NCBI GenBank assembly: GCA_017528375.1
Contig: JAFXOY010000124.1
Coordinates: 20,209 to 84,208 of the forward strand
Reading direction: 5' to 3'
Source of the DNA: Clostridia bacterium
GTDB taxonomy: Bacteria > Bacillota > Clostridia > TANB77 > CAG-508
Length of the DNA stretch: 64,000 nt
This document shows, in pieces, positions 3 through 38,191 of the stretch. The notes under the pieces were generated by a model, which worked only from the letters and a program-made list of their open reading frames with translations, did not search any database and had not been told where the DNA came from. Positions within the stretch are counted from its first letter, which is position 1. Each line of letters begins with the position of its first letter. The translations under genes were made by a program, and so were the position numbers.

Positions 3-1043
3 GCATATGATAAACTTATTTAGTTATTGATACGAAGTTTAATTTAGCCTGATTAGGTAATGATTATGGGCGGAACCTATGAGACTCCTGTAACAGAAGG
101 TTTATTGGATTAGGACTTTGTTGAACAGTTAAAATTATCTGGTACGTTTAATTAGGACTCGTTTGATAGATAGTATAGAAGTATCTGGTCTGGTGATGCA
201 GAAAATGCATTTTTCTCATCTGAGAAATTTGATAAGTATAGAATTTTGCGGCAGCCATAGAATGAATATAGCGGGAGAAGTAGTAAAAATGCCTACTATG
301 TTATTGGCGTTGACGTAGGTCGTATAGGATGTACAACCTAGGCCATGGTTTGGAAGGTGACGCCGCAACCACAGGGTGTGGCTATTAAATCTTTAGTTAA
401 TTTATATACATATTAGGCAGAGCATTTTGAACAACAGGCTATCAATATTAAAAAGTTATATTATAAATTTAAAGCGCGTAAGGTTGCTATTGATACCAAT
501 GGTTTAGGTATTGGTTTACTTGATTTTATGGTGAAGGCTCAGTAGACATAGGATGGTGAGTATCTTCCGCCTTTTGGTATTGATAATGATTAGGAGGGTG
601 TTTATAAAAAATATTTTAAGGGCATAAATGATTTATAGAAAGATGCAATTTTTCAAATAAAAGCAAATGCTCCAATTAATACTTAGGCTTATTCCTATGC
701 TCAAACGCAAATGTCACGTGGTAAAATTAAATTTTTAATTGATTAGGGATAGGCTAAAGCAAAAATGATGGAAACAAAAACAGGGCAAAATATGTCAATA
801 GACCAAAGAAATGATTATTTAAGACCTTTTATTTTAACTACCATTCTTAGATAGCAAATGTTAAATCTTGTCTAGGATAATTAGGGTGTCAATATTATTT
901 TAAAACAAGATAGTCGAAGTATTAAAAAGGATAAATTTTCTGCTTTTGTTTATGGATTATATTTTATTAAACAAGAAGAATAGCGAATGAGAAGCAGGAA
1001 AAAGAGAGATATAAGTAAATTTTCATTTTTTACTGCTCAATAA
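3..1043 (+). CDS. terL: Terminase large subunit, C-terminal nuclease half (5' end outside window); needs TAG read as sense
   Basis: The frame is open from the window edge to TAA 1041-1043, with 20 in-frame TAG and no TAA/TGA (manual read). Motifs VIGVDVGR, KVAIDTNGLGIGLLD and KDKFSAFVYGLY resemble the terminase RNaseH-like nuclease. It lies directly upstream of the portal gene. Confidence 0.7.
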
Positions 1044-1116
1044 GGACAAAATAGTGTTAATTAAAAAAAATAGAAATTAAAGAAGAATAGAAATTAAAAA
1101 AGAGAAGAGGTATTTT

Positions 1117-1476
1117 ATGAGAAGTTCAAGGGCTTAGATAAAAATAGAATAGATATTAAGCAATGCGAATTTTAACTTCACAGAAGAATATAGTTTCCCT
1201 GATTTAATTGGACAAGGTGGACATGCTTTACGTTTTGATTTTGCTGTTTTTGATGATAATAATGATTTGTGGTTTTTGATTTAGTATCAAGGTATTCAAC
1301 ATTATAAACCAAAATCAGTCTTTGGTGGAATGTCTGGATTAAAGAAACAGCAATATTATGACATGTTAAAGCGTGAGTATTGTAAAAAACATGATATTAA
1401 ATTAATATTAATTCCCTATTGGGATTAGGCTCGTATTAATTACGATTATATTATGAATTTAGTAGATGTTTTTTAA
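1117..1476 (+). CDS. Stand-alone Vsr/PD-(D/E)XK-like nuclease-domain protein between terminase and portal (possible homing-endonuclease relic)
   Basis: ATG 1117 follows GAGG and the ORF ends at TAA 1474-1476, with 4 in-frame TAG. RFDFAVF..LI*YQGIQHY..KHDIKLILIPY aligns with the C-terminal domains of the ORFs at 32796-33623 and 44156-45127. Confidence 0.55.
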
Positions 1477-1494
1477 TACAATTGAAAGGTTTAG

Positions 1495-3144
1495 GTGGTC
1501 TTATTGATAGATAGAAAAGCTGAAATTAAGAAAAAGGGTTTTAAAATAACTCTTGCAAACGATATTAGCGAAGAATATACTCCAACAGACTTTTCAAAGA
1601 TAAAAATTGGTATCAAAACATTAGATGACGCAGTACTATCATTAGGAGAATTTAAGCGTTTAAACCCAAATTTAGGAGATAAAAAAGAAGTATTAAGAGC
1701 AATAACTTTTGGTGATATTAATAAAATGAGAGATATTTCCAACTTCTTTTATAAAACAAGCGGTATTTATGCAAGACTCTGTAGATATATGGCTTATTTG
1801 TATAAATATGACTGGTTTATTACTCCTTATATTGGTTATTGTGAAGGTTTAATTTAGAGCGATTCAGGATTTGGAAATCAAGATACTTAGGGTTAGAAAA
1901 AATAGCGGAAAAAACAGTTTTTAAATTTTTTTAAAGTGTTAAAATATTGTGAGTCTTTTTAGATTAAAAAGTTTTGCGGCTAGGTTGCCTTAAAAGTTAT
2001 TAGACATGGATGCTATTATGGATATTTAATTCCTGGTACAAATAGAATTAATGTTCAAGAGTTAGATCCTGCGTATTGTAGATCCAGGTTTAAAGTAAAT
2101 AATAGAGCCGTAGTTGAATTTAACATGAGATATTTTGACGATAAATTTAAAGATGATGGTTTAAGGTCTAAAATTCTTAATTTATTTCCAAAAGATTTTA
2201 AAAATGGATATAGATTATATAAGCAAGGGAAATTGCCTCCAATGTTTTCTGGTGATTCCCAAGGGTGGTATGTATTAGATCCAAGGGCGGCTGTTAAATT
2301 TAATATTAACGAGTAGGATTTTCCAGCATTTATTTCAGTTATTCCTGCCATTATAGACTTAGACGCTGCTCAAGACCTGGATCGTAAGAAAATGGCTCAA
2401 AGACTTTTAAAAATTATTATTCAAAAAATGCCATTAGATAAAAATGGTTAGTTAATATTTGATGTAGATGAAGCACAATAGTTACATAATAATGCTGTTA
2501 AAATGTTGAGCAGAGCAATAGGTGTTGATGTATTAACAACATTCGCGGACGTTGATGTCGCTGATATGTCAGACAGAGGTACAACAACAACTGTTGATGA
2601 ACTTGAAAAAGTAGAAAGAACAGTATATAATTAGGCTGGTGTATCTCAATTACAATTTAACAGTGATGGAAATATTGCTTTGACAAATTCTATATTAAAT
2701 GACTAGGCATCTATGTACAATTTATTGGTGCAATTTGAATCATTTTTAAATTTATTATTAGAACCATTTAATAAATCTCCTAAAAAATGTTGGTATCAAG
2801 CACAACTTTTAACAACAACAATATATAATTATAAAGATATGGCTAAATTATATGAGGGGCAAGCAAAAATGGGTTATTCTAAGATGCTTCCTCAAGTTGC
2901 TTTGGGTCAAACACAAAGCTCTATTTTAGCAAATGCATATTTTGAGAATGATATATTAGATCTTGTGCGCGTGTTCGTTCCACCTCTTACCTCTAATACG
3001 ATGAATGCGGAAGCCCTTCAGAATCGCGGCAGCACCAGTGGAAAACCTCTTAATCCTGGGTCAGATGACAAGTAGGCCGGCCGCCCTGAAAAGGAAGATA
3101 GTTAGAAGAGTGAGAAGACAATAGCGAATAAGGAAAGTATGTAA
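1495..3144 (+). CDS. Portal protein (TAG read as sense)
   Basis: The track ORFs 1495-1857, 2125-2316 and 2713-3075 are all in frame 1 and are separated only by TAG (13 in total). The ORF ends at TAA 3142-3144. At about 549 aa it sits between terminase and scaffold. The GTG 1495 start is uncertain. Confidence 0.65.
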
Positions 3145-3155
3145 AGGAGGAGAAT

Positions 3156-4481
3156 ATGAGTTTAGCGCATCAAAGTATTGCTACGATTAATTCTCCAGAG
3201 TTTGTTAATTTACAACCAATGGATATCAATCCCTTGATGTCCTCTTGTTAGATTAAAGTATTATATCTTGGAGAAAATCGTAATAGAAGCTATATTTCTA
3301 AATAGGTAGCTATGGAGATGGCAAAAACACTTCGTGGCGCTCCTATTGTTGGATATTACAAAAAAGATAAGCAGGATTTTGCAGATCATGGTGAACAAAT
3401 GATTTGGGACGATGAAGGCATTCATTTTAATACATTAACAAAACCCTATGGATTTGTTGCACCAGATGCAAAGGTTTGGTTTAAAGATTTCGAAGATTTT
3501 GATGATTTTGGAAATTCTGTTATTAGAACTTATTTAATGACTACTGGTTATTTATGGACTGGTCAATTTGAATAGGCTCAATCTGTTATTGATTCTGGAA
3601 AACCCCATTCTATGGAACTTGATGAAAAAAGTTTGCAAGGACATTGGGCAAACAATATTAAAGAAGATATGGAATTTTTTATTATCAATGACGCAATATT
3701 TTCTAAATTATGTATTTTAGGTGATGATGTAGAACCTTGTTTTGAAGGATCAGCTGTGACTGCTCCTCAAGTAAGTGCATCATTTACTTTAGACAAGTAG
3801 TTTAAGCATACTTTATTTAAGATGATGGAAGAATTAAAAGATGCTTTAGAAGGAGGCAATATAGTGGCTGATATGAAAGATAAGGCTCCTGATACTTTTG
3901 TTGAAGAAGTAGAGCAGACTGAACAAGAAGTAACTACTGAATTCACGGAAGAAGTTTAGGACAATAAAGATGAATCTTCATTAGATGAAAGTGATGCTAT
4001 TGTAGAAGATGCTGAATCTACATTTTAGGCTTAGGAAGCTGAGAACGTTTTTGAAGAGTCTGAGCCAGAAGCATCTGAAGAAAATGAAGAACTTAATGAA
4101 AAGTATACAGCTCTTCAAAAAGAGTATGATGATTTGCAATCTAACTTCGCTTCTTTACAAGAGTAGGTTGTTGAGTTAAGGGCTTTTAGGGAGGCTGTTG
4201 AAGACAAGCAGAAAGATGATTTGATTAATCAATTTTATATGTTATCTGATGAAGATAAAAGAGATGTCATAGCGAATAAGGCTGATTATACTCTTGAAGA
4301 GATTAAATCAAAGCTTGCTGTAATTTGTTTTGAAAAGAAGGTCAATTTTAATTTAGAAGACTCTTCAAAAAATGAAGAAGAGAAGGAAGAAAGTGTTTTC
4401 ACTTTTGATGTTGACCATAAGGAAGATTCAACGCCAGATTGGATTAAGGCGGTTGAGTCTACGATGAATAGTAGATTTTAA
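3156..4481 (+). CDS. Scaffolding-like protein (globular N-terminal half plus acidic coiled-coil C-terminal half)
   Basis: ATG 3156 follows AGGAGG. Track ORFs 3312-3575, 3612-3800 and 4221-4481 share one frame and are joined by TAG (about 8). The Glu/Asp-rich heptad-like region and the position before the capsid genes support the call. Confidence 0.45.
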
Positions 4482-4496: not shown

Positions 4497-5078
4497 ATGG
4501 CTATAAAGAGAAAAGGTTATGGACAAGTTGAACCTAATCATTTATCTGCACAGCACAATGGACAGATTTATGCTCAACTGCCTGCACAGAAAACAACTAC
4601 CACTGGTACAGGAACATCCGCTACTACTACAGTTACAAAAGTCGCGCAGTTGGAAAATGGGCAGTTTTTAAAATATAACTATGCTGCTGGAGAATGCACT
4701 ACAACAGGCGATATTGAGTGGATGCTTGTTTATAACGAAGAAAAATTATATGATGAAAGACGTCAAGCACATAAGGATTTTGCTATGCTTGCTTCTGATA
4801 TGTGCGATGGCACAATTTATCCACGTTTATTTAAAACAAATGTTGGTGATATTTTTACTACCAATACTTTTAGAACTTCTGGAGATGCTACTGTGGCGGG
4901 TCCAGATGCAGAAATTAATATGCCTGACGTAACAGTTGGTGATTATTTTATTATTGATAATGATGGTTGGTTAAAAAATAATACTACTACCAAGGGTGCC
5001 GGAATGGCTTGGCAGGCAGTTAAAGTTTATACAATGCCTGATGGACAGCCTGGCGTAAAGCTTCAGAGAGTACAATAA
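4497..5078 (+). CDS. Abundant head-associated protein (decoration or auxiliary capsid protein?), TAG-free
   Basis: Intact 193-aa ORF with an AGGAGG RBS, immediately upstream of the major capsid gene. It has no TAG and its Gln codons are mostly CAG. Confidence 0.5.
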   Translation: MAIKRKGYGQVEPNHLSAQHNGQIYAQLPAQKTTTTGTGTSATTTVTKVAQLENGQFLKYNYAAGECTTTGDIEWMLVYNEEKLYDERRQAHKDFAMLASDMCDGTIYPRLFKTNVGDIFTTNTFRTSGDATVAGPDAEINMPDVTVGDYFIIDNDGWLKNNTTTKGAGMAWQAVKVYTMPDGQPGVKLQRVQ

Positions 5079-5097
5079 TTAAAAGGAGGATAAGATA

Positions 5098-6180
5098 ATG
5101 GCTTTAGATAGAACACAATTAATGGCATTAGCTAAGGCTACTGCGAAAGCTTCATTAAATCCTTCTACAGCTTTTGCTTTTGGAGATAAAAATTTAACTT
5201 ATGAAGCTTTAAATGAAACATTTAGAAAAGAAATGAACGAACTGGCTGGTACTTATGCCCAGTATCGTGAGAACAAAAATTTAATTTTCAGCTTAATTGA
5301 AGTTGGTTTGGATGAAGTTCTTCCTGCAAAGGTTCTTCAGAACTATGGTCAGTTTGCTGATGTTAAGACCTATGCACAGGGCGATAAGCCTGTTTTCCGT
5401 GTAAGAATATCCGAAGCATCTAAGAAACGTGCTAAAGGGTTCGTTACAAGGGTTGGTCTTGCTGGTAGATATGAAGTATTCAAACTTGATGGATATACAC
5501 TGGAAGTTCCTACAAGTGCTTACGGCGGAGCTGCTCAAATTGGCTTTGAAGAGTTCCTTGATGGACGTATCACTATGAGTGACGTATATGACCTGGTTCT
5601 TGAAGGTCTTGATGAAGTTGTTTATAAAGAAATCGCTAAGGCTTTAGTTGCTATGGCGGACACTACAATTTCTACTGCTTATAATAAATCCAGTGCAGCT
5701 GGTTTTGATGAGGCAGCTTTTGATAGACTGGTTGCTACGGCAGACGCTTATGGTAAGAGTACAATTTATTGTACTTATGAGTTTGCTGCTCAAATTGCTC
5801 CTGGTACTGCTGGAAGCATTAACTGGAGTGCAGTTTCTGATAGAATGAAAGATGACAGATGGAATAATGGGTATTTTACTCTTTATAAAGGACACTCTGT
5901 AATCGTTCTTCCTCAGAGCTTTGAAGACACTGACAATTATCAGAAAGTAATCGATCCTAGATATGCTTGGATTATTCCTACTGGTGCTGAAAAACCTGTA
6001 AAGATTGCTTTTGAAGGTGCGGCAGCGGTTAAAGAACATGAAAATGATGACTGGTCAAGAGAAATTGAGACCTACAAGAAATTTGGTGTCGCTGTTTACA
6101 ATAAGATGATTAATCCTGGTATTTGTGTATATAAGAATACTGCACTTAGTATCTATAATACAGAAGGTACTTGGTCTTAA
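5098..6180 (+). CDS. Major capsid protein, TAG-free
   Basis: Intact 360-aa ORF with an AGGAGG RBS, followed by a strong terminator. The position and size fit an HK97-fold capsid protein. Its codon usage is GC3-richer than that of its neighbours. Confidence 0.7.
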   Translation: MALDRTQLMALAKATAKASLNPSTAFAFGDKNLTYEALNETFRKEMNELAGTYAQYRENKNLIFSLIEVGLDEVLPAKVLQNYGQFADVKTYAQGDKPVFRVRISEASKKRAKGFVTRVGLAGRYEVFKLDGYTLEVPTSAYGGAAQIGFEEFLDGRITMSDVYDLVLEGLDEVVYKEIAKALVAMADTTISTAYNKSSAAGFDEAAFDRLVATADAYGKSTIYCTYEFAAQIAPGTAGSINWSAVSDRMKDDRWNNGYFTLYKGHSVIVLPQSFEDTDNYQKVIDPRYAWIIPTGAEKPVKIAFEGAAAVKEHENDDWSREIETYKKFGVAVYNKMINPGICVYKNTALSIYNTEGTWS

Positions 6181-6197
6181 TTTTAAAAAATTTAATA

Positions 6198-6226
6198 GGG
6201 GAAGGCTTTGTACCTTCCCCTTTTTA
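6198..6226 (+). terminator. Rho-independent terminator after the capsid gene
   Basis: GGGGAAGG (6198-6205), a 7-nt loop and CCTTCCCC (6213-6220), followed by TTTTT. Confidence 0.8.
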
Positions 6227-6255
6227 TTGGTATGGAGATAAAAGGAGAAGAAATT

Positions 6256-6807
6256 ATGGAAAAAAATACACCTGTGAAGGTATTAAATAGAGATAATGGG
6301 GCGGTAGTTTATTCTATCCCTGAAATGAATGGATTAAGAAGAGTTTTTCAAGCGGGAGAAACTAAAGAGGTAACATTTGAAGAGTTACAAAAATTATCTT
6401 ATATTCCTGGCGGTAATGAATTATTAAGAGAGAATCTTGTTATTATAGATCAACCAAAAGCAATAGAAGAGTTGCTTGGTAGAGTTGAACCGGAATATAG
6501 TTATACAAAGACAGATGTTATTAAATTATTAAAATAGGGTTCTTTAGATGAATTTCTTGATTGTTTAGATTTTGCTCCAGATGGAGTAAAAGAATTAATT
6601 AAAACATTGGCAGTTGAATTACCTTTAAATGACGTTGCTAAAAGAGAAGCTATTTTTAATAAATTAGGATTTAATGTAGATGCGGCTATAAGAATACAAA
6701 AATAGGCAAATGAAGTTGAGCCTGAGAAGGATCAATCTAAGCCTAGCCGGAGGGTACAGAAAGTCTAGGAAAAACCCGCTAGCACCAGCCGCCGCGTTAT
6801 AAAATAA
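6256..6807 (+). CDS. Hypothetical head-module protein
   Basis: ATG 6256 follows AGGAG. Track ORF 6208-6537 continues in frame through 3 TAG to TAA 6805-6807. Confidence 0.55.
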
Positions 6808-6831
6808 TATTATTGTAAAGAGGGGGATAAA

Positions 6832-7164
6832 ATGTTTTCTATTAAAGACAATGATATTACCCTTATTCGTGGAGATACTTTATTATTATAGATAAAGATA
6901 ATGAAATAGGGTAATCCTTATATTCCAAAAGAAGGAGAATCTATTCGGTTCGCTATGAAAAATAGATATACGGACCCAGATGAGAAAGTGGTTTTAGTAA
7001 AACAAATCCCTATAGACACTCTTGTTTTGGAGCTAGAACCGGAAGACACAAAAAGTCTTCCAATGAAATCTAGGTATGTTTATGATATTCAATTTACTGA
7101 TAACGAAGGTAGAGTAGATACTTTTATAAAAGGAACTTTAACACTTGATGAAGAGGTGTTATGA
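6832..7164 (+). CDS. Hypothetical virion-module protein
   Basis: ATG 6832 follows GGGGG. Two in-frame TAG join it to track ORF 6955-7164, which ends in TGA. Confidence 0.5.
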
Positions 7165-7301
7165 TGGAGCCTATTATAGTAATTGGATAGATAAAAATGT
7201 TCTCTATTCTTGTTGGAACGCTTCAAACATTACCTTTTGTTGAAGAAAATAAATCAGAGCAAAATAAAATAACAGAAGAATACATTAAGGAGGCGGAATA
7301 A
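7161..7301 (+). CDS. Small hypothetical protein (46 aa)
   Basis: Its start overlaps the previous stop as ATGA. It has one in-frame TAG and ends at TAA 7299-7301. Short, so weakly supported. Confidence 0.3.
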
Positions 7302-7302
7302 A

Positions 7303-7845
7303 ATGGCTACGGAATATACTTCTTTTTCTAAGGTGTATGAACTCTTTTTATCAAAAATTACAGATGATATGTATATGGAATTGACTTTAGAAGATACACT
7401 TAAAATTTTAAAATAGCTTCTTATTTCAGCACTTCCTAAATTTGAGTTTCCAAGACAGAGCTTAAAGTATGAGGAAATGAGTTCTTTTTAGTATAGTGAA
7501 GATAGTGATATAGAAACATAGTTTTATTTTTTAAATTAGTTAACAGAAGAAGAAATGAATATAATCGCTACATATATGATAGTAGAATGGATTGGACAAC
7601 AATTAGCTTCAATAGAAAACGTTAGAATGAAATATAGCGGCAGCGATTTTAAATTTACTTCTCAAGCTAATCATATGCAAAAACTTCTTCAAATGAAAAA
7701 GGATTATGAAAGATAGGGTCTTCATCTGCAAAGACTTTATAAAAGAAGGCAAGTTGACGATAATGGTATCTATCGTTCTACTTTTGGTAGCCTTATGGAC
7801 AATCAACCGAGAGGAGGAACTGGAGTATGGGGAAAATGGTTTTAA
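7303..7845 (+). CDS. Head-tail connector/adaptor-like protein
   Basis: ATG 7303 follows AGGAGG. The 180 codons include 5 in-frame TAG and end at TAA 7843-7845. The call rests on position and on a small helical protein with the motif LTEEEMNIIATYMIVEW. Confidence 0.45.
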
Positions 7846-8156
7846 ACTCTGGTGTTGAAATTGAAATATAGGCTATCATCTTTAATATTAAACGTATTAT
7901 TAATCAAGTTTATAAATTACTACCAATGAGAGAAGAAGGTAGAGATTGGGAAAAACCTCTTCAAACAATTATTGAAGAAATATCTGGTATGAAAAGGTTG
8001 ATTGTTGGTCAGGACGACCTTTTCTTTTTAATATTATGTAAGATGGAGGGTCTGTTTAGTTTACATAGACAAGAGGATATGAATATTTATAGACGTACTA
8101 TTTTTGAATGTCTAAGTTTATTAAACAGTTTAAATCAAAATGTTGGAATTAAATAA
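7836..8156 (+). CDS. Hypothetical neck/head-completion protein
   Basis: ATG 7836 is in frame with track ORF 7926-8156 through one TAG. It overlaps the end of the previous gene. Confidence 0.45.
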
Positions 8157-9456
8157 TTTAAAAAAACGACTTGATATTAATAATGACAGTGACAATTATC
8201 AGTTTTTTGATGAAAATGTTACTGGCTTAAATAATATGCAAAGAAGATTACAAGTTCGCGGAGGAACTGACCAATGGACGCGAATGAGAGAAGACAAATT
8301 AAAAGGTTTAAAGAAAGCTTTATTATATTCTTATCAAAGTGCAATTGTACAAAAATACGATGTAAAAAAAGATAGTTTAGCAAATAATATTATTTCTATA
8401 ATTACATTATTACAAGACCAACAAACTTTAAATGAAAGTCAATAGGCGTTGTTGGATGCTTTGGAAGAAGAATATAGTTTTTTATCTGAAGATAGAACCT
8501 CTTTAATTTATATTAATGATTTAAATAATATAGTAGATAGTTTAACTTCTGCTCAACCGTTGTTTAGATGTTTAATAAATCATGACAAATTAAAAGTTGA
8601 TTATTAGGATAAAATAATTTCAATTCCATTTTATGAACCCCCTGTCGGTAATGTTGATCCTATAGAGACACAGTTTCATAATGGGACTGTTTTTAAATGG
8701 GTTCATGGAAATAAAGAAGATTGGACTCCTGACACTTATTGGATTGTTCTTATGCAGTATTCTTAGGAAACGGCATATTTTAGAGCATAGATTAGAAAAG
8801 CAGATGAACAAATAGAAATAATTGTTATTGACAGCTAGGGAAACGAAGAGTCTGTTACTTACAGGGGCTGGATGACAGGTCCAAATGAAACCACTGCAAT
8901 GTGGAATGTAAAAAAAGATTTGGTTTGGAATGATTTAAATTATACTAAGTTGTTATATATAACAAAAGATGAAGATACTTTAGCATTTTTCCAAAGGTTT
9001 GATAGAATTATAATTAATGGAAAACCATGGGAAGTTCAAGCCTATAACGAAAGTTATAGTACAAGTAAAAGTGCGGGAACCGACTCAGGAATTATTAGAG
9101 TGGCTCTAAAAGAGGCTTATACTAGTACTAATCAGTTTATAAACTAGACACTATAGGATTTAGAGGAGGCTTAGGAAAAGCAGGCCCAGTATGATGAAGA
9201 ACATACCGAGCCCCGCATTGATGGTCCTTCTATTGCTAAACCTTATGATGTTTTAACTTTTAAAGCCAAGAATTTTAATTCACAGGAGGAGTGGACTCTT
9301 TATGATTCTCCTCTTGCTAAGATAGCTTAGGTTTCTTAGGATGGCTTAACTGCCACTGTACATGTTATAACGGGACAGTCAAATAAGAATGGATTTTATA
9401 TTAATTATGGAAATAATTAGAGTAGTAAAATTAATATAGTGATAGAATCTTTTTAA
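8140..9456 (+). CDS. Virion structural protein (438 aa)
   Basis: Track ORFs 8140-8445 and 8872-9147 share frame 1. About 11 TAG join them and the ORF ends at TAA 9454-9456. Confidence 0.55.
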
Positions 9457-9474
9457 GATAAAAGGGGGTAAGAT

Positions 9475-10864: not shown

Positions 10865-10878
10865 GGAGGATTTTTTAT

Positions 10879-11874: not shown

Positions 11875-11890
11875 TTAATTTAAATTAAAA

Positions 11891-11927
11891 ATGGGAAGGA
11901 GGCTTTAGCTTCTTTCCCATTTTTTTG
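11891..11927 (+). terminator. Rho-independent terminator after the major tail gene
   Basis: ATGGGAAGGAGGC / GCTTCTTTCCCAT stem (two G-U pairs), TTTA loop, then TTTTTT. Confidence 0.75.
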
Positions 11928-11944
11928 TTAGGTGGTGATATTAA

Positions 11945-12622: not shown

Positions 12623-12640
12623 CCTCCTGTAGAAATAATA

Positions 12641-12946: not shown

Positions 12947-12971
12947 CAACTTAAAAAATTTATGCTATAAT
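12943..12971 (+). promoter_or_regulatory. Consensus sigma-70/sigma-A type promoter
   Basis: TTGACA (12943-12948), a 17-nt spacer and TATAAT (12966-12971). The TGA stop of the upstream gene lies inside the -35 box. Confidence 0.7.
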
Positions 12972-13030
12972 AGAATTACAAGAGAAACAGGAAAAACAAA
13001 ACAAAAGAAAAAAGGAGTGGAGTTTAAAAT

Positions 13031-26900: not shown

Positions 26901-29900
26901 CAGGGTCAGATAAAATATTAATGCATATTCCAGTTCATTTAATGTTAAATAGATACGAACAATCTGCTTTAAATGGTTGGGATGGAAATAATGTTTAGCT
27001 TGGTGGTACTAATGGTGGTATGATTCTTTCTCCACAGATTGGTGCCGGTATCAAGTAGATGGATAATTCTTTTACTGGAATGGTAATGGGAAAAGTTAAA
27101 GACAGTTCTAGTACTGATCTTGATATGGAAGTTGGTTTGTTTGGATATGACCATGGAGAACGTACTATTTTCTTAGACGCAGATACCGGAAAAGCTTAGT
27201 TTGGAAAAAATGATAGCGGTAAAATTATTATTGATCCGAGAAACAGTCAAGCAGTAATCTAGTCTGGGAATTATTCACCTGGAAGTGGAACAACACCTGG
27301 ACAGGGAATGCAAATTAATTTAACGACTCCAAGTATTAATTTTGGGTCTGGAAACTTTTCAGTTGATCAATATGGTCATGTAACTTTGAAAGGTGCCACT
27401 TTAACAGGAAATTCAACTACTATTGAAAATCTTGATAGTTTATTAGCTAATTCGCAAACAATTGCAGATTTGTAGGAGCAAATATAGGGTACAACTCAAG
27501 TTTGGTCTGGTACAGGTGTTCCTACATTAAGTAATTATCCTGCAAATCAATGGACTACAACTCAAGATAAACGTAATCATGTTGGTAATTTATATTTTTA
27601 GAGCGATGGAGATTGCTATAGATTTTTATAGACAAGCGCTAATGTATTTGAGTGGGTTCTTATTCCAGACTCTAGCGCTTAGGCTTTACAAACTGCAAAC
27701 GACGCTTTACAAAGAGTTACTGAAATTTATGATGCTGATACTGCCAGCGGTTTATTAATTACTGACTACTATACTAAAAATTAGACCGATACGTAGTTAA
27801 CTGCGGTTGAAGGAAGAATTAATAGCACGATGTCTTCTAATTATACATCGAAGGCTTAGTTTAGAAGCAGCCGCTATGATAATTTATTACCATATCCTTA
27901 TTATGAAACAACTCATGTAGATAATGGTATTACATGGACCGATAATGGAGACGGTACTATTACTGCAAATGGTACGGCGACAGAAGATTCTCAATTTTAT
28001 TTTACAAAAACATTTGCTGGTTATGAATTTTTTACAAATGAAGATATATATACAATAAGCACTGGCGTTGCTGGTTGTTCTTCTTCAACATATTTTATGA
28101 TGGGATATGCTGGTAACACAGAAAGTGACGGACAGTATTTTACATCACTTACAATCAATGGAACAAGCGCATATGGTAATGAATATACAATAGACACTTC
28201 TGGTTACAGTAGGTTTGGAAGATTTTATCTTAAAATTAAAAGTGGTGTAACTGTAACCAATCTTAAATTTAAACCAATGTTAGAAAAGGGGTCTATAGCA
28301 CATGATTATATCTCATATGCAGATTCTATGGGTGGAGTAAAAGCAGAAGTAACAATTACAGATAATAAAGTTTCTTCTTTATAGCAAACTGTAGACGGAT
28401 TTCAGACAACAGTTAGTTAGACATATGCAACAAAAGTATAGGTTAATCAAAACGCTGATATTATAAACTTACTTCCAGCTGTATATCATGTAGAAAATGA
28501 ATTTGGAAATCCATATACGGCTTCAGGACTTACTTGGACTCTTAATAAAAATGGTTCTGTTACCGTTGAGGGGACGGCTACTGCAAATGGAACTTATAAT
28601 TTTCCTGGCTATAGTTTAAGTACAAACGTTTCACCTGTATTATTAGACTCTGGAAAAAAATATCGTGTACATGGTTGCCCTGCTAATGGTTCAACATCTA
28701 CGTATAGAATTGTAGCAAGATGTTGGACTTCTTCACAAACTCCCGATGGAACAGGTGGAACAACTTATAGTGATACTGGAAGCGGAGTAACAGTTCCTAC
28801 TGGATATAGATATATGCAAGTTTATGCAATTGTCTATTCAGGTTATACTTGTCCTTCTGGCGGATTAACATTTTATCCAATGGTTTAGATAGGAGAAGTG
28901 GATCATATGTATGTATCTTCTCATAACGTTGGCTCATTGGCGACTCGTATGAAAACTGCATAGTCTTCCATCACACAAAATGCAAATAATATTGCATTAA
29001 AGGTTTCTACTACGGATTATACTGGAGCAACAATAGCAACGTTAATTAATCAAAGTGCTGATACAGTAACTATTAAGGCTCCTCATATTGAATTAAGTGG
29101 AACAGATATTGCTGGAAGAATTAATGATTCTTAGGTACGTATAGATGCAGATAGAATTAATTTAAATGGTGCCGTTACTGCAAATAATTATTTTAAGATT
29201 AATACAAATGGAAGTATACAGGCAACGGGTGGAACGATAGGTGGTTGGACCTTGGCTTCAAATGCTTTATATAACGGTACAAATAGTATGACTAGTACAA
29301 CTGTTGGGACATATATTGGAACAGGTGGTATTAGACAATATAAATCTTCATCTGCTTATGTAAATATTAAGGATGGCGTTATAACTGCCGTAGGAGCTAG
29401 TATTTCTGGCGCAATTACTGCAACTTCTCTTAGTTTAGGGTCAGGAGTAACAATTGCGGCAGGTAAGGTTTCAGGTCTTTCTACTGTAGCCACTTCTGGA
29501 AAGTATACTGATCTTTCTAACACTCCAAACCTTAGTGTTTATGTTCAAAAAGATGGAACAATAGGAAGTACTCCTGCGGCTGGAGCAACTGGATTTAAAG
29601 TGTCTTCTGCTGGATTGCTAACATGTAGTAATGCGGTTATTTATGGTACTGTTTATGCTTCCGCGGGAAAGATAGCAAATTGGACTATTAGCGGAAATAT
29701 GCTTGAATGTATAACCAATAATACCTCTGGGACGCAATATCGTACGTATGTAAATGGAACAAGTGCAATAGGATCAGTTTCTAGTAATGGATCTTTTGGA
29801 GTTCAACATAGGGCTTCGTCAAGTGCTGGTTGGGTTAATGATTTTTATGTTTTAGCTAATGGCGCTTTATATGCAAATAATGCAGATATAACTGGTAAGA

Positions 29901-30742
29901 TTACAGCTTCTTCTGGTACAATAGCAGGCTGGACCATTACTTCAAATCAGATATCTAAAAACGTAACACTTAGCGGTAGTACATATCAAGCTTTTATTTA
30001 TGCTCCAGCTAGTCCGGGGGCTGGCACTGCAGCTTTTGGAGTAAGTAAAACTACAGGATCTACTACAACTTATCCGTGTTATATTCGGTATGATGGCGCT
30101 TTAGTTGCAACAAGCGCTATAATTACAGGAGGATCAGTAAATATTAACGCGTCTTCTTCAGATTTTCAATATATACAATTAAAGTATACGACATCTAAAT
30201 TATCTGCTACAATGGCTCCTAATTTTATAATGATGGACGATGGTGTTAACTATGTTACCACTCATTTACGAAACAGTGGAGTAAGGATACACACTGATTG
30301 TCAACTTGTTGTTTCTGGGGCTTCAACTCATAATTGCTATCTTTAGGTATACAAGCCTGGTGCCTCTGGTATAGCGAATGCAAACATAGGAAAATCATAT
30401 TTAGATATTAATTATATTAAATATTATGATAGCTGCACAAATGTTTCTGATAAACGTTTTAAAACTAATATTAACCCAATCTCTTATGAGCAAGCGTTAA
30501 ATTTTGTTATTAATGCTAAACCAGTATCTTATGAATTAATTGATTCACCTTTAAATGTCCATCACGGAATGGTTGCTCAAGATATTAAAAAATATGTAAA
30601 TATACAAAAAAATTGGGGTCTTGTTCAAGAAGACGGAGATGGATTTTTATCTTTAAATTATATTGAAATGATTCCTGATATGATTGTTGTGATGCAACAA
30701 TTGGTTAAATAGATAGAAGAACTAAAAGCGAAAACAACATAA
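23954..30742 (+). CDS. Giant tail tip / receptor-binding protein, about 2262 codons, with C-terminal S74-type intramolecular chaperone domain
   Basis: ATG 23954 follows AGGAGG. Track ORFs 25517, 26789, 28097 and 29252 all lie in frame 2 and are joined only by TAG (about 55), ending at TAA 30740-30742. The C-terminus (SDKRFKTNI..HHGMVAQDI..LNYIEMIP..IEELKAK) matches the tail-fibre/endosialidase chaperone domain. The N-terminus has an OB-fold hub-like motif (KYKVQYQDGYWYAYSG..VYILVPNGD). Confidence 0.65.
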
Positions 30743-31799: not shown

Positions 31800-32288
31800 T
31801 TAAAAAGCGCTTCCATGCTATAAAACATAAGCATTTCCTATACAAATAGCATCACTTATATCATCATTAACATCTATATTATATTTTTTCTTAACAAGAT
31901 TTTTACTAGCTTGTTTTAATGTTTCTCGTTTAATCCCCCGCCCTGTCTTTATTCCACAAATCTTTCTCCACTAACTTGGTATATAAAACTAAATTTTTTG
32001 TTTATTTTTATTTAGCTCTATTGCAATTGCAGCTTGTAAATACATTAAAGCTTTAAAGGTTACTTGGTTATGTCTAACATCCTATGGAAGAACCTCTTCC
32101 ATAATAACATCGGTTGGATTGTATAAATCATATAACTATCTAATTCTTTTTACTGTTTTCTATATTCTTGTTAATGTATTACCAGAAACAGCAATACATT
32201 CATAATGAACCAGGGTGGTATTATCAAAAATTGCTACTCCAGAACTTGTAGTACTTCCATCTATTGCTAAAACTTTTATTTTACTCAT
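31800..32288 (-). CDS. ruvC: RuvC-like Holliday junction resolvase (TAG read as sense)
   Basis: ATG at 32288 follows GGAGG and the ORF ends at TAA 31800-31802. Six in-frame TAG were each frame-checked. Motifs: VLAIDGSTTSSG, MEEVLP, WRKICGI, DDISDAICIG. Confidence 0.7.
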
Positions 32289-32309
32289 TTCATGCCTCCT
32301 TATATTCTA

Positions 32310-32338
32310 AGTATAGCATAAAATTTTTAAAAAGTCAA
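32310..32338 (-). promoter_or_regulatory. Sigma-A type promoter upstream of ruvC-like gene
   Basis: On the minus strand: TTGACT, a 17-nt spacer, then TATACT. Confidence 0.6.
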
Positions 32339-32346
32339 AATTTTGA

Positions 32347-32377
32347 GCAAAAAAATAAGATGGCTTACGCCATCTTA
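32347..32377 (-). terminator. Rho-independent terminator after dut exon 2
   Basis: TAAGATGGC / GCCATCTTA stem with a 4-nt loop, followed by T7 on the minus strand. Confidence 0.7.
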
Positions 32378-32378
32378 A

Positions 32379-32576: not shown

Positions 32577-33715
32577 CATTTTGTTACCTTAAAGGCTTTT
32601 TATCCTTTAATTCTTATAATTTCTTATAAGTTCAGCATATCTTTTCACTCTTTAAGTGCTGCGGCCTCGTGGTAGGATTATATCTTTTCACCTACTATGC
32701 GTTGCCCCTGACTATACTTAATATAGCCTTCGGTTCGGATTAGCATATCATTTTGACTTAGCCTTCCCGCTTAATTCCGCAGTTTAATGTCGGCGTTATT
32801 TTTCTATAAAAGAACTTGTTTCAAGTAATAAATCTTCTAATTTTAAATCTTTATAATGTGTATAAGGTATTCTTATTAAAGGAATATTATTTTTTTTACA
32901 CCACTAAGATTTTAATAAATCGTGCTTATGAGTGTATTCATAATCAAAAATACTATCTTTTTTAAAATGCTGTTCTCCGTCATATTCTATAAGATATTCA
33001 TTATTAATAAAAAAATCAAAAGGTAATTCTTTTATATCTTTACAAGTAGCAAATTTTTTCTAAATCTAATAGGATATATTTGCTGCATCTAATATATCTG
33101 CAATTTTAACATTGCCTTTTGATATATTTGAATGTAATCCACAACTTAAGCTTCTACCAGATCGTAGAGATGTTCCTAAAACATCTTTTTCTGTGCCACA
33201 TTCACATTTACAATGCCAATAAATAACTCCTCCTGTATTTCTTTTATCTGTTTTATATAAAACAGTCCATTTACCAAAAACTTGTCCACAAATATCTATT
33301 TCTGTAGTATGAGAAGTGTTGTGTTCTTTACCTTTTAAATTTGAATCATACCAAATTTTTGTAATCATTCCTCTAGATACATTAAATTTTTTAGCTAATT
33401 CTGTAGATGTCATATCCTAATAATGCTATTTAATAAAATTTTTATCATTTTCAGATAACTTATATTCCTTATTTGAGTTTACATCATATCCAATTTTTTT
33501 TGCATGATTTAAAATTGAAGTTTTATTACAATTATAAAGTTCTGCCATTTTACGAGAACTTTTTAAATTTTCATAGTTTTTTATAAAATCTTCATTAGAA
33601 CCAAAATTAATTTTTTTAGCCATATTATATTCTCCTTTTTATTATGATATTATATTTAAAAAATATATAAGCCAAAATAATCAGATTTGTCCAATGAAAT
33701 CAAAATATTTTATTC
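32577..33715 (-). mobile_element. Group I intron (about 1139 nt) interrupting dut and carrying an endonuclease ORF
   Basis: The two dUTPase halves are separated by 1.1 kb. Exon 1 ends in U (..GTC GGT) and the intron ends in G (..AACAATG). GCCGAC at 32789-32794 (minus strand) can pair with the exon end GUCGGU, giving a U-G wobble. AAGATATAATCC at 32675-32686 (minus strand) resembles the conserved group I S element AAGAUAUAGUCC. The proposed CUGCGG/CCGCAG (minus-strand) pairing is long-range. Confidence 0.6.
32796..33623 (-). CDS. Intron-encoded homing-endonuclease-like protein (2 HTH, Zn-ribbon module, Vsr/PD-(D/E)XK-like nuclease); TAG read as sense
   Basis: Track ORFs 33426-33623 and 33066-33413 share a frame. 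With 5 in-frame TAG (frame-checked) the ORF runs to TAA 32796-32798. Motifs: WHCKCECG..SCG, FDFF..LIEYDGEQHF..IPLIRIPY. Confidence 0.65.
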
Positions 33716-34864: not shown

Positions 34865-34889
34865 ATTTTTTCTCCTTTATAATATTTTA

Positions 34890-35378
34890 TCATAAAATCT
34901 TTTCTTTGTCAAGTTCTATAATCTTTTGATTAGAACTTCCTCTTAATGGAAGGGTTATATCTCTTAAATCTTTTTCATATCTTCCATCAATAAGATAATT
35001 TGCTTGTTTTAAAATTTGATTAATTCTTTTATCTTTTTTATTTAATAATTCAGCAAAAGTATAACCAGACCAAATATATATTTTTATATTAGGATAGGCG
35101 GTGCGGACGGCGGTGATGATTGTCAAGACTCCGTCTAGGTTTTCATCACATAGAGGCTCACCACCTAAAACACTAAAGTTACGTTCTATACCATTGGCGC
35201 ATATAGCTTTAACTATCTGTCCTTTTAAATCTGCGGGCGCAGGCTATCCACCTTCAAAGTCCCAGGTTTCAGGATTGAAACATTCAGGGCAGTGATGGGG
35301 ACAACCTTGGACCCAAAGTGACACACAGACGCCGCCGCCATCAGTAAAATCATTTTTATTTAAGCCTGCAAGTCGCAT
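34890..35378 (-). CDS. nrdG: Anaerobic ribonucleotide reductase activating protein (radical SAM), one in-frame TAG
   Basis: ATG 35378 to TAA 34890-34892, in frame with track ORF 34890-35126 through the TAG at 35244-35246. Motifs: VSLWVQGCPHHCPECFNPETW, LGGEPL, LRGSSNQKI. Confidence 0.8.
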
Positions 35379-35381
35379 ATG

Positions 35382-35963
35382 TTAATTTCCTTCCTTTTTT
35401 AGCATATTTTCTACAAAAATTGCTCCCAATGAATTTCCCACTATAACCATTAAAAATTTCAACCAATTTATTGGGTCTGTTGTTACTAATAAATATGGGA
35501 AATCTGCAATACAGTGTTCTGCTCCAATTAAAATAAAAATCATAATAGCCAGAATAGTAATAATATAATTTTTAGCTTTAACTGCAAAATGGATTAGTCC
35601 CCCGCAGAATATACCACCAATTGCCATATCAACAAAATCTTTACTAAATTTTATTTGTGCTTTTGCTTGTAACATAGTAATAAAATCTTGATTCATTATT
35701 CCATAAATAAAAACACAGAATAAAATTCCTAATAAATTACCTATTAAAACTACAAAAAGAAATTTACTTTTTTCTTTTGTTAAATCATAAAAACCAATTT
35801 TACCCGTATATAAAGGTAAACCCAATTCTATAATTGTTAATAATCCAAAACTAAAGAACATTGCTCCTAGTTCAGGGACACCAGAGAGGGTGTTAATAAT
35901 AACACCCAATCCAATTAAAATACCTGCTATAACTGATGTATTCATTACTGTCATTCTTTCCAC
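35382..35963 (-). CDS. Compact six-helix formate/nitrite transporter (FNT)-like membrane protein
   Basis: Track ORF. ATG 35954 (an ATGA overlap with the nrdD stop) is an alternative start. Six hydrophobic segments are visible. GAEHCIADF resembles the FNT motif FEHS(I/V)ANM and LPLYTGK resembles ELFTGN. Confidence 0.55.
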   Translation of the reverse strand: MERMTVMNTSVIAGILIGLGVIINTLSGVPELGAMFFSFGLLTIIELGLPLYTGKIGFYDLTKEKSKFLFVVLIGNLLGILFCVFIYGIMNQDFITMLQAKAQIKFSKDFVDMAIGGIFCGGLIHFAVKAKNYIITILAIMIFILIGAEHCIADFPYLLVTTDPINWLKFLMVIVGNSLGAIFVENMLKKEGN

Positions 35964-38191
35964 CCTCTTAACATTTTTGAATGTTTAAATCTCATTTCTG
36001 TTTCTTGCTGTTTTCCTAAATTAAAAGCTGTTTTATAATCACCTGTTAAATATCCTGTTACTCTACGTAATCTTTGAATTTTATCGCTGCCGCATTGAGG
36101 GCATACATCATTTATTTCATCTGTATATCCACAATTTGTACACATATCATTTGGAACATTGATTGCGAAATAAGGAATGTCTTTATCCATAGCATAGTTT
36201 ACAATAGTTTCTAATGCTTCTATGTTATTTTTAACTCCGCTATCAAGTTCAACATAAGTGATACATCCTGCAGAACTATAACCTGTTAATTGACTTTCAA
36301 TATCAATTTTATCAAATGGACTCATTTCTTTCCATACTGGAACGTGCATTGAATTAGTAAAGAAATCATTTTCAGAAACATTAGGAATTTCTCCATATTT
36401 TGCTTTAAAACGAGTCATTGCAGTGTAACATAAGTTTTCTGCTGGGGTATAGTATACTCCAAAATTAAGTTTATAATCTTGTTTAAACTCTGCGCACCTA
36501 TCTTTAAATAATTGTTCGATACGTTTAGCCAGTTTCATACCTTCTTCTGTTGTATGATCTGTTTTAATTAATATTTGTAAGCATTCAGCTAAACCCAATT
36601 GTCCTATAACTATTGTTCCGTGTTTAAGTGCAGAACGAATACCCTCTTCAGGAATATAACCTTCCATTGTACCATTTTCATACATAAATTTTGCAGAAGC
36701 TGGGGATTGCGAACAAATATATTCAAATCTTTCAAGAAGCATATCTTTTGCTTGATGAATTTTTTCATCTAATAAGTCCATAAAATTAGCAATTCCATCG
36801 CGAGCATCAAAATAATCTGTATTTTTATATTTTTCTGTAGCTTCCATAGCAATAGTAGGAAGAATAATGGTTACTGGACAAATATTTCCTCTACCGTCTT
36901 TGAGTTGACCGAATCCGTTGATATCAAAACCATTTGCCGTTCTACATCCCATCGTAGAGAAATAGGTACGGGGATCATTTCTATCGTAGCCAATATTTCC
37001 TGTCCAGTCGACATTTGCGTAGTTAGGATATAACCTTTTTGCAGTGCTTTCTAATGCCAATTTGTACAAGTCGTAATTGGGATCTCCAGGGTCACGATTA
37101 ACTCCTTTCATACATTGAAAAATTCCACATGGGAATATAGGTGTCTTGTGTAATCTACCATTACCTTCAATTGAGGCGTCGAGCAATGCTTTAATTATCA
37201 TACGCCCTTCTGGTAAAGTACAAGTACCGTAATTAATTGAAGTGAACGGCAACTGGTTACCAGAGCGACTTTGTAACGTGTTGAGATTATGATACATGCC
37301 TTCTACCGCCTGATATGTTTCTCGTGTTGTCATATCTATTGCGTACTGATATACTTTTGGAAATTTTTCAGTAAAATGTTTATTGTCAATAGAAAGCTAA
37401 GTTAAATATTCCCAATCTAATTCATCTTTACACCCAGCAATATAATGATAACCATCTTTCCAATGTTTTACAAAACTCTTTCTAACATACGGAACCATAG
37501 TCCAATCAAGATGGCTTGCCGAAACACCACCAAATTGATTTAACGATTGAAGCTGAAATAGTACCGCTACAAGCTGAAACGCTGTATTTATGGAATTAGC
37601 CGGCCGCACATCAGTCTGCCTTGTATTAAATCCATTAGCTAATAATTTATCAAAAGGAATGGTTAAGCAATTATGGTCACCAAGTGCATAATGGTCTAAA
37701 TCGTGAATATAAATTTCATTATTTCTATGTAAATCTGCCATCCATTTTGGCATACAATAATTTAATGCATATTCTTTTAGATTTGCGGAACTGGCTTCAC
37801 CCATCCTTCCGCCAAAAGACTCTTCATCTACGTTGGCATTTTGCATTGTATTATCTTCTACATTAAGTTTCTTTTCAATGTTTTTTACATAAGTTCCATT
37901 AGCTTCTCTAGCTTTGGTTCTCTCTTGTCTATATGTAATGTATGCTTTAGCTACATCTTTACGTTTAGTAGACATTAATCCTTTTTCTACTAAGTCTTGA
38001 ATTTCTTCAATGGATAAAATTCCATCATAGTCAATACAGTATCCTTCAATATAATCTGCTATATTATTAGCTTTATCAATAGCATAATCTGTTAATTTTC
38101 CATCAACAGCCGCAAAAGCCTTTAATATAGCATTTTTAATTTTCTAAGGGTTAAAGTCTACTAATCTATTATCTCTTTTTTTAATTTTCAT
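35951..38191 (-). CDS. nrdD: Anaerobic (class III) ribonucleoside-triphosphate reductase, two in-frame TAG
   Basis: ATG 38191 follows GGAGGA. Track ORFs 37397-37975 and 35951-37333 share its frame and are joined by the TAG at 37397-37399; a second TAG lies at 38144-38146 in the N-terminal ATP cone (KKRDNRLVDF). The C-terminus has the Zn-ribbon CTNCG..CPQCG and the glycyl-radical motif RRVTGYL. Confidence 0.85.

Follow-up and report, generated by a model that had tools for sequence, protein, structure and literature searches.

The window, a 64,000-nucleotide stretch of contig JAFXOY010000124.1 (assembly GCA_017528375.1), covers about half of the genome of a gut/rumen phage of roughly 130 kb (31.7% G+C), which its gene families place among the SPbeta-like phages and whose host is presumably a member of the Bacillota (Clostridia-type). 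In this phage TAG is a sense codon, TAA and TGA are still stop codons, and TAG very probably stands for glutamate (Glu), as an earlier note on this DNA had argued against the glutamine (Gln) reading. It is quite probably decoded by a phage tRNA with a CUA anticodon, tRNA(CUA), found in a tRNA array of the same genome, and we lean towards a charging of this tRNA by the host glutamyl-tRNA synthetase (GluRS), with the glutaminyl-tRNA synthetase (GlnRS) and GatCAB excluded. To the explanation as a whole (an SPbeta-like phage, TAG as Glu, a Glu-like tRNA(CUA), charging by GluRS, exclusion of GlnRS and GatCAB) we assign a probability of roughly 85%.

The use of TAG as a sense codon is seen directly in the reading frames. 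Between positions 3 and 30,742 the plus strand falls into fragments under the standard code and resolves into long, intact genes once TAG is read as sense; the codons contained in open reading frames (ORFs) of at least 150 amino acids on this strand increase from 1,855 when TAG terminates to 9,784 when it is read through, and in the ORF tables of the window the frames are long and intact with only TAA and TGA as stops. The full genome (129,975 bp, gap-free) was built by walking via exact-sequence cluster look-ups along ENA contigs, two of which, k141_2669404 (61,191 bp) and k141_2912282 (68,925 bp), both from sample ERZ27256869, match the window near-identically, with 10 mismatches in the overlaps and a 141-base overlap at one junction. 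Genome-wide, 537 in-frame TAG codons are spread over 97 of 187 ORFs; these crude ORFs end in TAA (143) or TGA (44), which follows by construction and says nothing on TAG termination. Per 1,000 codons, the structural blocks contain 21-29 in-frame TAG and the tail-fibre block 8, and the range for the early and replication blocks is 0-8; the minus-strand genes at 31.8-64 kb have few TAG codons or none. Three head and tube genes are also free of TAG (scaffold-like, 4497-5078; capsid, 5083-6180; tail tube, 10843-11874), and these are presumably the highest expressed. In six ORFs a TAG lies within the final 10 codons, as in the primase, at codon 401 of 402. Pseudogenisation was considered as the origin of the TAG codons and rejected.

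The amino acid at TAG was assessed in alignments with related phages. With the TAG-free capsid protein as query, 80 related IMG/VR loci were obtained at 58-84% identity, and later queries, among them NrdD, which supplied loci L148-L227, brought the set to 198 alignable loci. These were translated with TAG as X, aligned by BLASTP and mapped back to codons, which yielded 621,993 codon pairs. The 73 loci with at most one in-frame TAG were taken as standard-code references; among the recoded loci, 38 have TAG opposite Glu of the phage and 4 have TAG opposite its Gln. Column percentages refer to the standard-code references and a curated gene set; the curation, which dropped spurious overlapping ORFs, moved Glu at TAG columns from 40.9% to 41.2%. 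At TAG columns the references carry Glu (41.2%), Asp (10.1%), Gln (8.2%) and Lys (8.0%); the corresponding values are 50.0, 11.9, 5.1 and 7.2% at GAA/GAG columns, and 10.6, 3.3, 44.5 and 10.0% at CAA/CAG columns. Composition bias was rejected as a source of the Glu signal, the background frequency of Glu being about 8%, compared to 41% at TAG columns. In a Codetta-style inference on these columns, 20 models built on empirical substitution profiles were compared; Glu was best, followed at a distance by Gln (-1,146 log-likelihood units), Asp (-1,268) and Lys (-1,601), as calculated on pooled, non-independent pairs. Counting column by column, which removes most of the pseudo-replication, the majority residue at the 151 TAG columns was Glu in 73, Asp in 17, Lys in 12 and Gln in 10. 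When only TAG columns conserved to at least 80% in at least 10 references were considered, 31 were Glu, three Asp, one Lys and none Gln. The E-like fraction of the TAG columns, calibrated on true Glu and Gln columns, was 0.84-0.87 (bootstrap 0.78-0.96).

The same pipeline and references were applied to other recoded phages. The phage phAss-1 (OQ749652), published as reading TAG as Gln with three tRNA-Sup-CTA (PMC10607447), gave six conserved Gln columns and no Glu; two further Gln-type queries gave 23 Gln and two Glu (L038) and seven Gln and no Glu (L075). Close recoded relatives of the present phage yielded the opposite pattern, with 28 conserved Glu columns and no Gln in L010, 25 and none in L021, 14 and one in L002, and 18 and one in L033. 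The pipeline thus tells a Glu code from a Gln code, and by these alignments both meanings of TAG are present inside one phage family. In the capsid tree the Glu-type phages form one block, whereas the Gln-type phages are scattered among standard-code lineages. Glu is assigned to the clade of the present phage (at least 38 loci), Gln to phAss-1, L038, L075, L177, L178 and L192, and possibly Trp to L143 and Tyr to L165. In L143 (IMGVR_UViG_3300028805_000058), homologues of the two genes just upstream of the large terminase gene have TAG at eight columns, six of which are Trp in the present phage and in standard-code relatives (five conserved to at least 80%), and L143 is therein a candidate TAG=Trp lineage. 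L165 (IMGVR_UViG_3300028591_000104), in which the NrdD region has a Tyr majority at 6 of 10 TAG columns, four of them conserved, is likewise a candidate for TAG=Tyr.

Composition and codon exchange point to the same amino acid. In aligned late-gene columns the phage has 6.32% Glu and 2.45% TAG, compared to 8.60% Glu in standard-code orthologues, and Gln is nearly equal in the two (3.94% vs 4.01%); TAG thus fills a deficit of Glu, and there is no deficit of Gln to be filled. The counts on which the earlier note had based its composition argument were reproduced exactly for the terminase fragment (13 GAA/GAG, 16 CAA/CAG and 20 TAG in 346 codons) and nearly so for the portal (23 Glu, 19 Gln and 13-14 TAG in 540-552 codons) and the capsid protein (25 Glu, 9 Gln and no TAG in 360 codons). 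Its charge argument stood as well, since the terminase fragment has a net charge of +12 with Gln at TAG and -8 with Glu, and the portal +11 and -2, respectively. Opposite TAG of the phage, Glu-type recoded relatives have GAA in 921 cases, TAG in 522, GAG in 174, CAA in 89 and CAG in 19. As an exchange between TAG and GAA requires two base changes, this reflects selection on the amino acid and not mutational proximity. The earlier note had also raised an origin of TAG from CAG, and the CAG:CAA ratio of about 2:1 on which it drew is indeed found in the TAG-free capsid gene; in recoded relatives, however, exchanges of TAG with GAA/GAG are about four times more frequent than those with CAA/CAG.

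Public versions of these proteins carry the other translation. A 103-amino-acid protein encoded just beyond the window (public P0001) has Gln at its three TAG positions, whereas its homologues have Glu at 10 of 12 corresponding positions; this protein and the gene calls on ENA contigs L081, L100 and L232 already have code 15 translations, in which TAG is Gln. On our reading of TAG, these public versions would be mistranslated.

The genes of the window and their in-frame TAG codons are as follows.

3..1043, plus strand: C-terminal 346 codons of the large terminase gene (terL), 20 TAG (full gene 579 amino acids, 24 TAG)
1081..1476, plus strand: small nuclease with the motif ..FDF..(x)..LI-TAG-YQG..H, 4 TAG
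1486..3144, plus strand: portal protein, 14 TAG
3132..4481, plus strand: YonD-like head protein (Pfam YonD_N), 8 TAG
4497..6180, plus strand: two TAG-free head genes, including the major capsid protein (YonB family)
6196..13555, plus strand: head-completion and tail genes (YomW, YomV, YomU tube and YomO families), TAG in all except the tube gene at 10843-11874
13653..23837, plus strand: tape-measure protein, one ORF of 3,394 codons, 117 TAG (called as 3,393 amino acids with PhageMin_Tail)
23948..30742, plus strand: large tail protein of 2,264 codons with an internally duplicated module, 49 TAG
31800..32378, minus strand: RuvC-like resolvase (Pfam RuvC), 7 TAG
32796..33638, minus strand: ORF with a duplicated helix-turn-helix (HTH) and a nuclease domain (LIEYDG), 5 TAG
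34890..35381, minus strand: NrdG activase, 1 TAG (35244-35246)
35382-35984, minus strand: formate/nitrite-transporter family gene (Pfam Form_Nir_trans, 5e-16), between NrdG and NrdD
35951..38221, minus strand: NrdD anaerobic ribonucleotide reductase, 2 TAG (38144-38146 and 37397-37399)
46322..48178, minus strand: RecJ-like exonuclease (DHH, RecJ_OB), 7 TAG
56395..57429, minus strand: GIY-YIG protein with an N-terminal coiled coil, 10 TAG, few homologous columns
31.8-64 kb, minus strand: further genes, for guanylate kinase, a PolC/DnaE-type polymerase, a RecD-like helicase, a GT8 glycosyltransferase, primase, DnaB, NAD-ligase and gyrase A/B

Several TAG codons of the late genes fall on near-invariant Glu columns. 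In terL the TAG columns at 171, 258, 339, 684, 744 and 873 hold Glu (or TAG) in nearly all relatives; the first of these is the X of FDRXY, with 43 Glu and 11 TAG, in keeping with the terminase consensus F.rEY that the earlier note had put forward. The portal columns at 2632 (Glu in 74 of 76) and 2704 (Glu in 69) and the YonD-like columns at 3249 (68 Glu) and 3573 (66 Glu, 10 TAG) behave similarly. The nuclease TAG at 1282-1284 occupies the position of the Glu of an (I/V)-E-(F/Y)-D-G motif, is Glu in 54 and TAG in 20 of 74 relatives, and is matched by Glu in two paralogues within the window (IVEFDG and LIEYDG). The other alignments between duplicated segments were also found as described: the tail-protein TAG at 28886-28888 (PMV-TAG-IG) stands opposite GAA 28283-28285 (PMLEKG) of the duplicate module, HY-TAG-DM stands opposite NYENL in the duplicated HTH, and four further nuclease paralogue columns (E/N, K/D, Q/E and K/E) agree with the sequences by eye. 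In the ORF with the duplicated HTH, column 33060-33062 is Glu in seven of nine relatives.

The minus-strand columns are less uniform, and here some of the family consensus residues named in the earlier note did not hold. The RuvC-like columns are variable, with a plurality of Glu among relatives. In NrdD both TAG columns vary, and the supposed Glu of the ATP cone at 38144-38146 (13 Asn, 7 Glu, 6 Lys, 6 Ala, 6 Ser) fares no better than 37397-37399 (16 Asp, 10 Lys, 9 Glu). Of the RecJ-like columns, 46361-46363 is Glu in 11 of 21 and 48008-48010 is Glu in seven and Thr in six, while 46754-46756, for which a Glu consensus had been suggested, has six Asp and four each of Glu, Pro and Ala. Nor does NrdG provide the counter-example for Gln that had been seen in it, as column 35244-35246 is variable in standard-code relatives (12 Glu, 10 Lys and three each of Leu, Gln and Ile).

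The tRNA that would read TAG lies outside the window. No tRNA was found in the window by ARAGORN or by Rfam at the gathering threshold, and none with a CUA anticodon in the first 227 related loci, where relaxed ARAGORN thresholds or introns gave noise only. On the minus strand of the extended genome, at window-equivalent 92.7-98.1 kb, ten tRNAs (Asn, Gln, CUA, Thr, Ser, Glu, Pro, Trp, Leu and Met) form an array within a TAG-poor, minus-strand block, about 30 kb past the window's right edge. The search for a suppressor elsewhere in the genome, which the earlier note had called for, thus returned a single tRNA(CUA).

About 94,121-94,213 in window-equivalent positions (L244 14348-14440), minus strand: tRNA(CUA), the sole CUA tRNA found in the genome

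The one genomic tRNA outside the array is a tRNA-Lys(UUU) in the early region; its position apart from the main array is conserved in the family (L228 17630-17704, L125, L127, L143, L145 and L147). No aminoacyl-tRNA synthetase or release factor domain was found in any gene table. Directly adjoining the array is a 494-amino-acid DUF2828/DUF7788 protein (L244 10824-12308, minus strand, window-equivalent about 90.6-92.1 kb), and about 12 kb from it lies a block with an RNA ligase and a KTI12/AAA_33 kinase (L232 14565-18152); these genes may serve tRNA repair or RNA handling.

The sequence of tRNA(CUA) reads CGGCGGT TT GAC AAGCGGTTTAA GTC C CCGGT CTCTAAA ACCGG CATCCCTTCCGTGAGGAAGGTC AGGGG TTCGAAT CCCCT ACCGTCG A. 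The first pair is C1-G72 and the discriminator A73; the D stem is 3 bp and the D loop 11 nt long, there is an extra arm of 22 nt, and CCA is not encoded. With the extra arm removed, it was scored against the 834 tRNAs in the loci at hand, and its nearest non-suppressors were tRNA-Glu(UUC) genes (scores of 37 and 33), the best other isotype scoring 21 and the best tRNA-Gln 19. The L388 tRNA-Glu(UUC) has exactly the same D arm, GAC-AAGCGGTTTAA-GTC, and A73 recurs in the tRNA-Glu of L388, of L380 and of the phage itself, while the first pair of tRNA(CUA) is C1-G72 and not G1-C72. The phage's own tRNA-Gln has A1-U72, G73 and a shorter D loop. By these comparisons tRNA(CUA) is Glu-like, and the covariation described below is that of a genuine tRNA.

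A search of IMG/VR and JGI metagenomes with the shared anticodon arm uncovered more than 140 amber suppressors. All four Glu-type relatives in which a suppressor could be matched to a typed contig (L002, the L159 and L153 contigs, and L357, whose local TAG columns are Glu in three and Asp in two) have C1-G72 and A73 and no extra arm. Conversely, G73 is combined with A1-U72 or U1·C72 in the suppressors of the Gln-type phAss-1; in these and numerous others the first pair is A-U, U-A or a mismatch, position 73 is G, and CCA is usually encoded. Twelve members of the C1-G72-type class, nine of which have the C1-G72 pair itself, show compensatory double changes in 14 of 20 cloverleaf pairs, which indicates functional tRNAs under selection. 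The variable loop measures 4 nt in the related suppressors of L372, L387, L393 and L343, and 5 nt in those designated type B. An exact 18-mer of the phage's suppressor had no match in IMG/VR; the long-arm form was found in the phage's own contig L244, a second ENA assembly (L245) and metagenome contigs L384 and L389 (the latter with C73).

Other stop-codon tRNAs appeared in the same searches. Four unrelated IMG/VR contigs of 38-374 kb (L255, L281, L321 and L337) carry amber suppressors with textbook features of tRNA-Glu, namely G1-C72 together with A73, a variable loop of 4 nt, an acceptor that starts with GGCTC or GTCC, and no CCA; TAG may thus stand for Glu outside the SPbeta-like family as well. 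Suppressors with G1-C72, G73, a long extra arm and a GGAGAG... acceptor, in L317, L376, L377 and L390, are tRNA-Ser-like, and their bearers are candidate TAG=Ser phages or elements. Among relatives of the phage, tRNAs with UCA or UUA anticodons (L182 12269-12340, L189 12245-12316, L113 12836-12919, L208 15961-16032, L210 9263-9334 and L284) are possible TGA or TAA suppressors, in which case other stop codons would also be recoded in the family.

A route by which Glu would reach the ribosome can be proposed from these features. Bacterial GatCAB needs U1-A72 and rejects both a G:C pair at 1:72 and an extra D-loop base (PMC2811023), and the identity elements of GlnRS include U1-A72 and G73 (PMC9976931). 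Having neither U1-A72 nor G73, tRNA(CUA) does not present the requirements of either route to Gln, and it keeps the D arm that is read by GluRS. Host GluRS would accordingly charge it with Glu directly, a non-discriminating GluRS, already tolerant of C36 or G36, being the enzyme that would most easily accept A36; C1-G72, A73 and the enlarged D loop would block both charging by GlnRS and amidation by GatCAB. Glu would then be delivered at UAG once the tRNA array is expressed. The array lies in an early/middle minus-strand block and may be expressed ahead of the late, TAG-rich genes. That recoding delays the synthesis of late proteins until the phage tRNAs have been made is a published idea (Borges preprint), and the distribution of TAG in this genome matches it.

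A number of observations weigh against TAG as Glu or against a tRNA-Glu origin of the suppressor. Glu is less frequent at TAG columns than at true Glu columns (41% vs 50%), the fraction of columns with positive E/Q log-odds is also lower (75% vs 84%), and Gln is the majority residue in 10 of the 151 TAG columns. The signal from early genes is weak, with 17 TAG columns of which eight are Glu. In a test of Glu against Gln versions of five TAG-rich proteins, the Pfam RuvC model scored the Gln version at 26.9 bits and the Glu version at 24.6; the Pfam set lacks the new SPbeta families and only RuvC was matched, so that this test is uninformative rather than contrary. As to the suppressor, its C1-G72 pair differs from the G1-C72 of the E. 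coli tRNA-Glu identity set, its 22-nt variable arm is found where tRNA-Glu is without residue 47, and its anticodon positions 34 and 36, strong determinants for GluRS in E. coli, differ from those of UUC (PMC9976931). Furthermore, for the type B suppressors of close relatives tRNA-Glu is not clearly the nearest isotype (best Gln 23.5, best Glu 20.5).

Some of these observations bear on the standing assignment of code 15, by which a Gln-type amber suppressor would insert Gln at TAG, in the manner of the crAss-like phages, the Lak phages and phAss-1. Gln is the sole TAG reassignment reported for phages (Borges preprint; PMC10607447), the public gene calls already place it at TAG, and it has on its side the ten Gln-majority columns and the 2.3 bits by which the RuvC hidden Markov model prefers it. 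The Gln model is nevertheless 1,146 log-likelihood units worse, no conserved TAG column is Gln where 31 are Glu, and the late genes have a normal Gln content without TAG and a Glu content short by the TAG fraction. A further point in favour of Gln is that the NrdG of E. coli has this residue at the position of the NrdG TAG. Since the pipeline does return Gln for true code-15 relatives, and since the suppressor is tRNA-Glu-like, without U1-A72 or G73, we consider Gln very improbable. Other residues are hardly credible. The variable arm of 22 nt and the D stem of 3 bp, which are like those of bacterial Tyr, Ser and Leu tRNAs, hint at a class II identity, ARAGORN labels the tRNA 'Pyl' by its anticodon, and Asp is the second commonest residue at TAG columns; Tyr, Ser and Leu together nonetheless make up only a few percent at these columns, Asp and Lys models lose 1,268 and 1,601 log-likelihood units, and close relatives with the same Glu signature have suppressors without the extra arm. 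Bacterial tRNA-Tyr has G1-C72 and tRNA-Ser is marked by G73, in contrast to the C1-G72 and A73 of the suppressor, which also lacks the unusual architecture of tRNA-Pyl. An identity as tRNA-Pyl, tRNA-Sec or a class II tRNA for Tyr, Ser or Leu was rejected.

Two further scenarios leave Glu in place and differ in how it gets there. In the one proposed by the earlier note, a CUA suppressor of tRNA-Gln type is glutamylated by a non-discriminating GluRS and escapes amidation by GatCAB. The rejection features that it calls for are indeed present (a strong pair of G:C type at 1:72, A73 and an enlarged D loop), many Bacillota lack GlnRS, and the type B suppressors of relatives are marginally closer to tRNA-Gln; the anticodon stem CCGGT/ACCGG and the CAT that begins the variable region also resemble the E. 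coli tRNA-Gln. The descent from tRNA-Gln is the part that is less well borne out: among natural tRNAs the suppressor is nearest to tRNA-Glu, with which it shares the D arm letter for letter and the discriminator, whereas the phage's own tRNA-Gln has A1-U72/G73 and a shorter D loop. As both routes give Glu, they are poorly separated by sequence alone, and we regard the escape of a tRNA-Gln-type suppressor as unlikely. Decoding could also be ambiguous or time-dependent, TAG being a stop early and Glu late, or a mixture of Glu and Gln. The rarity of TAG in early blocks, at 3-6 per 1,000 codons, and its abundance in late ones, at about 27 per 1,000, the six ORFs with TAG in their last 10 codons and an E-like fraction of 0.87 rather than 1.0 would all accord with this. 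Such a fraction is also consistent with TAG at sites under slightly weaker constraint, and the late genes give the signal that a single amino acid at sites of that kind should produce; with one tRNA(CUA) only found in the genome, we consider this scenario quite unlikely. Glu at TAG, delivered by a tRNA-Glu-like suppressor, is hence the explanation that we prefer.

Among the remaining genes, the formate/nitrite-transporter family gene between NrdG and NrdD is of interest in that the reductant of class III ribonucleotide reductase is formate; the three genes therefore look like a functional module. Precomputed Pfam matches of the called genes comprise YonG_N, YonD_N, YonB, YomW, YomV_2nd, YomU_Tube, YomO, YorF and Phage_SPbeta_YorH, and full-length terL had no match in a PDB sequence search. 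An intergenic region at L100 395-963 (window-equivalent about -5,100 to -4,540) contains the palindrome TTGTTAA-N5-TTAACAA three times, in two cases with TTGCAA after it, and then a G+C-rich hairpin pair. It looks like an operator/promoter cluster and is situated near that end of the early minus-strand genes which faces the terminase gene, some 1.3 kb upstream of the late block. Elsewhere in the family, a standard-code relative carries an RT-2 RNA (L087 2563-2788; Rfam RF03077, 92.6 bits) and the tail-fibre genes of L095-L099 have Mtd_N domains; some members may thus contain diversity-generating retroelements.

If TAG is Glu in this clade, its public proteins would be wrong at 2-6% of structural-protein residues, with effects on charge, catalytic residues and structure predictions, as surveys of recoded phages and their tools translate TAG as Gln (code 15). 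What TAG stands for in a given phage should not be assumed, since lineages may differ in the amino acid captured, and TAG meanings in phages may be far more varied than thought. The amino acid of a captured codon would be set by the tRNA body that the phage mutates, and would not be limited to Gln and Trp by the host synthetases. We tentatively suggest that the amber codon could have been captured independently for different amino acids within one SPbeta-like gut/rumen phage family, each time with its own suppressor class; were this true, incompatible codes may act as barriers between related co-infecting phages. A natural Glu-inserting amber suppressor with antideterminants for GlnRS and GatCAB would be of interest for genetic code engineering in Bacillota. 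Peptides with Glu and Gln differ by 0.984 Da, so that the claim can be tested in existing rumen and gut metaproteomes.

Recoded phages and their general mechanism are known; the present phage would stand apart in its amino acid at TAG and in the kind of suppressor that it carries. The main survey of recoded phages lists only TAG=Gln and TGA=Trp (Borges preprint), the sole relative with a published description, phAss-1, was given Gln (PMC10607447), and in a full-text literature search outside subscription journals a reassignment of TAG/UAG to Glu was found in ciliates only, and none in phages or bacteria. With the code 15 phages (crAss-like, Lak and phAss-1) the present phage shares the concentration of TAG in structural and late genes, with TAG-poor early genes, and a tRNA(CUA) among other phage tRNAs in a presumably standard-code host; its capsid protein is 52% identical to that of phAss-1. 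It departs from them in the amino acid, Glu and not Gln, and in a suppressor with C1-G72, A73 and a Glu-type D arm, where theirs combine G73 with a short D loop of Gln type and a 1:72 pair that is weak or mismatched. The SPbeta-like phages (SPbeta, Enterococcus EF1 and EF5, and Staphylococcus SPbeta-like phages) share with it YonG, YonD, YonB, YomW, YomV, YomU, YomO, YorF and YorH, a genome of about 130 kb and a capsid similarity of 24-39% (tblastn), in a rearranged gene order; Enterococcus phage EF1 has no stop-codon recoding (PMC10607447). UAG is also Glu in some ciliate nuclear codes (NCBI table 30 of peritrichs, Oligohymenophorea sp. PL0344 and some phyllopharyngeans). These are, however, eukaryotic, nuclear and genome-wide codes that involve the release factor, table 30 also reassigning UAA, whereas in the phage a virus-borne tRNA would act against a standard-code host and the early genes are largely free of TAG. 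The nearest engineered counterpart combines, as the phage tRNA appears to do, a tRNA-Glu body with a CUA anticodon for Glu at amber codons: the E. coli tRNA-Glu(CUA) suppressors of Kleina, Normanly, Miller and co-workers (1990), which were reportedly mischarged to a large extent with Gln by GlnRS. The phage tRNA differs from these in its C1-G72 and A73, which would remove the determinants for GlnRS and GatCAB.

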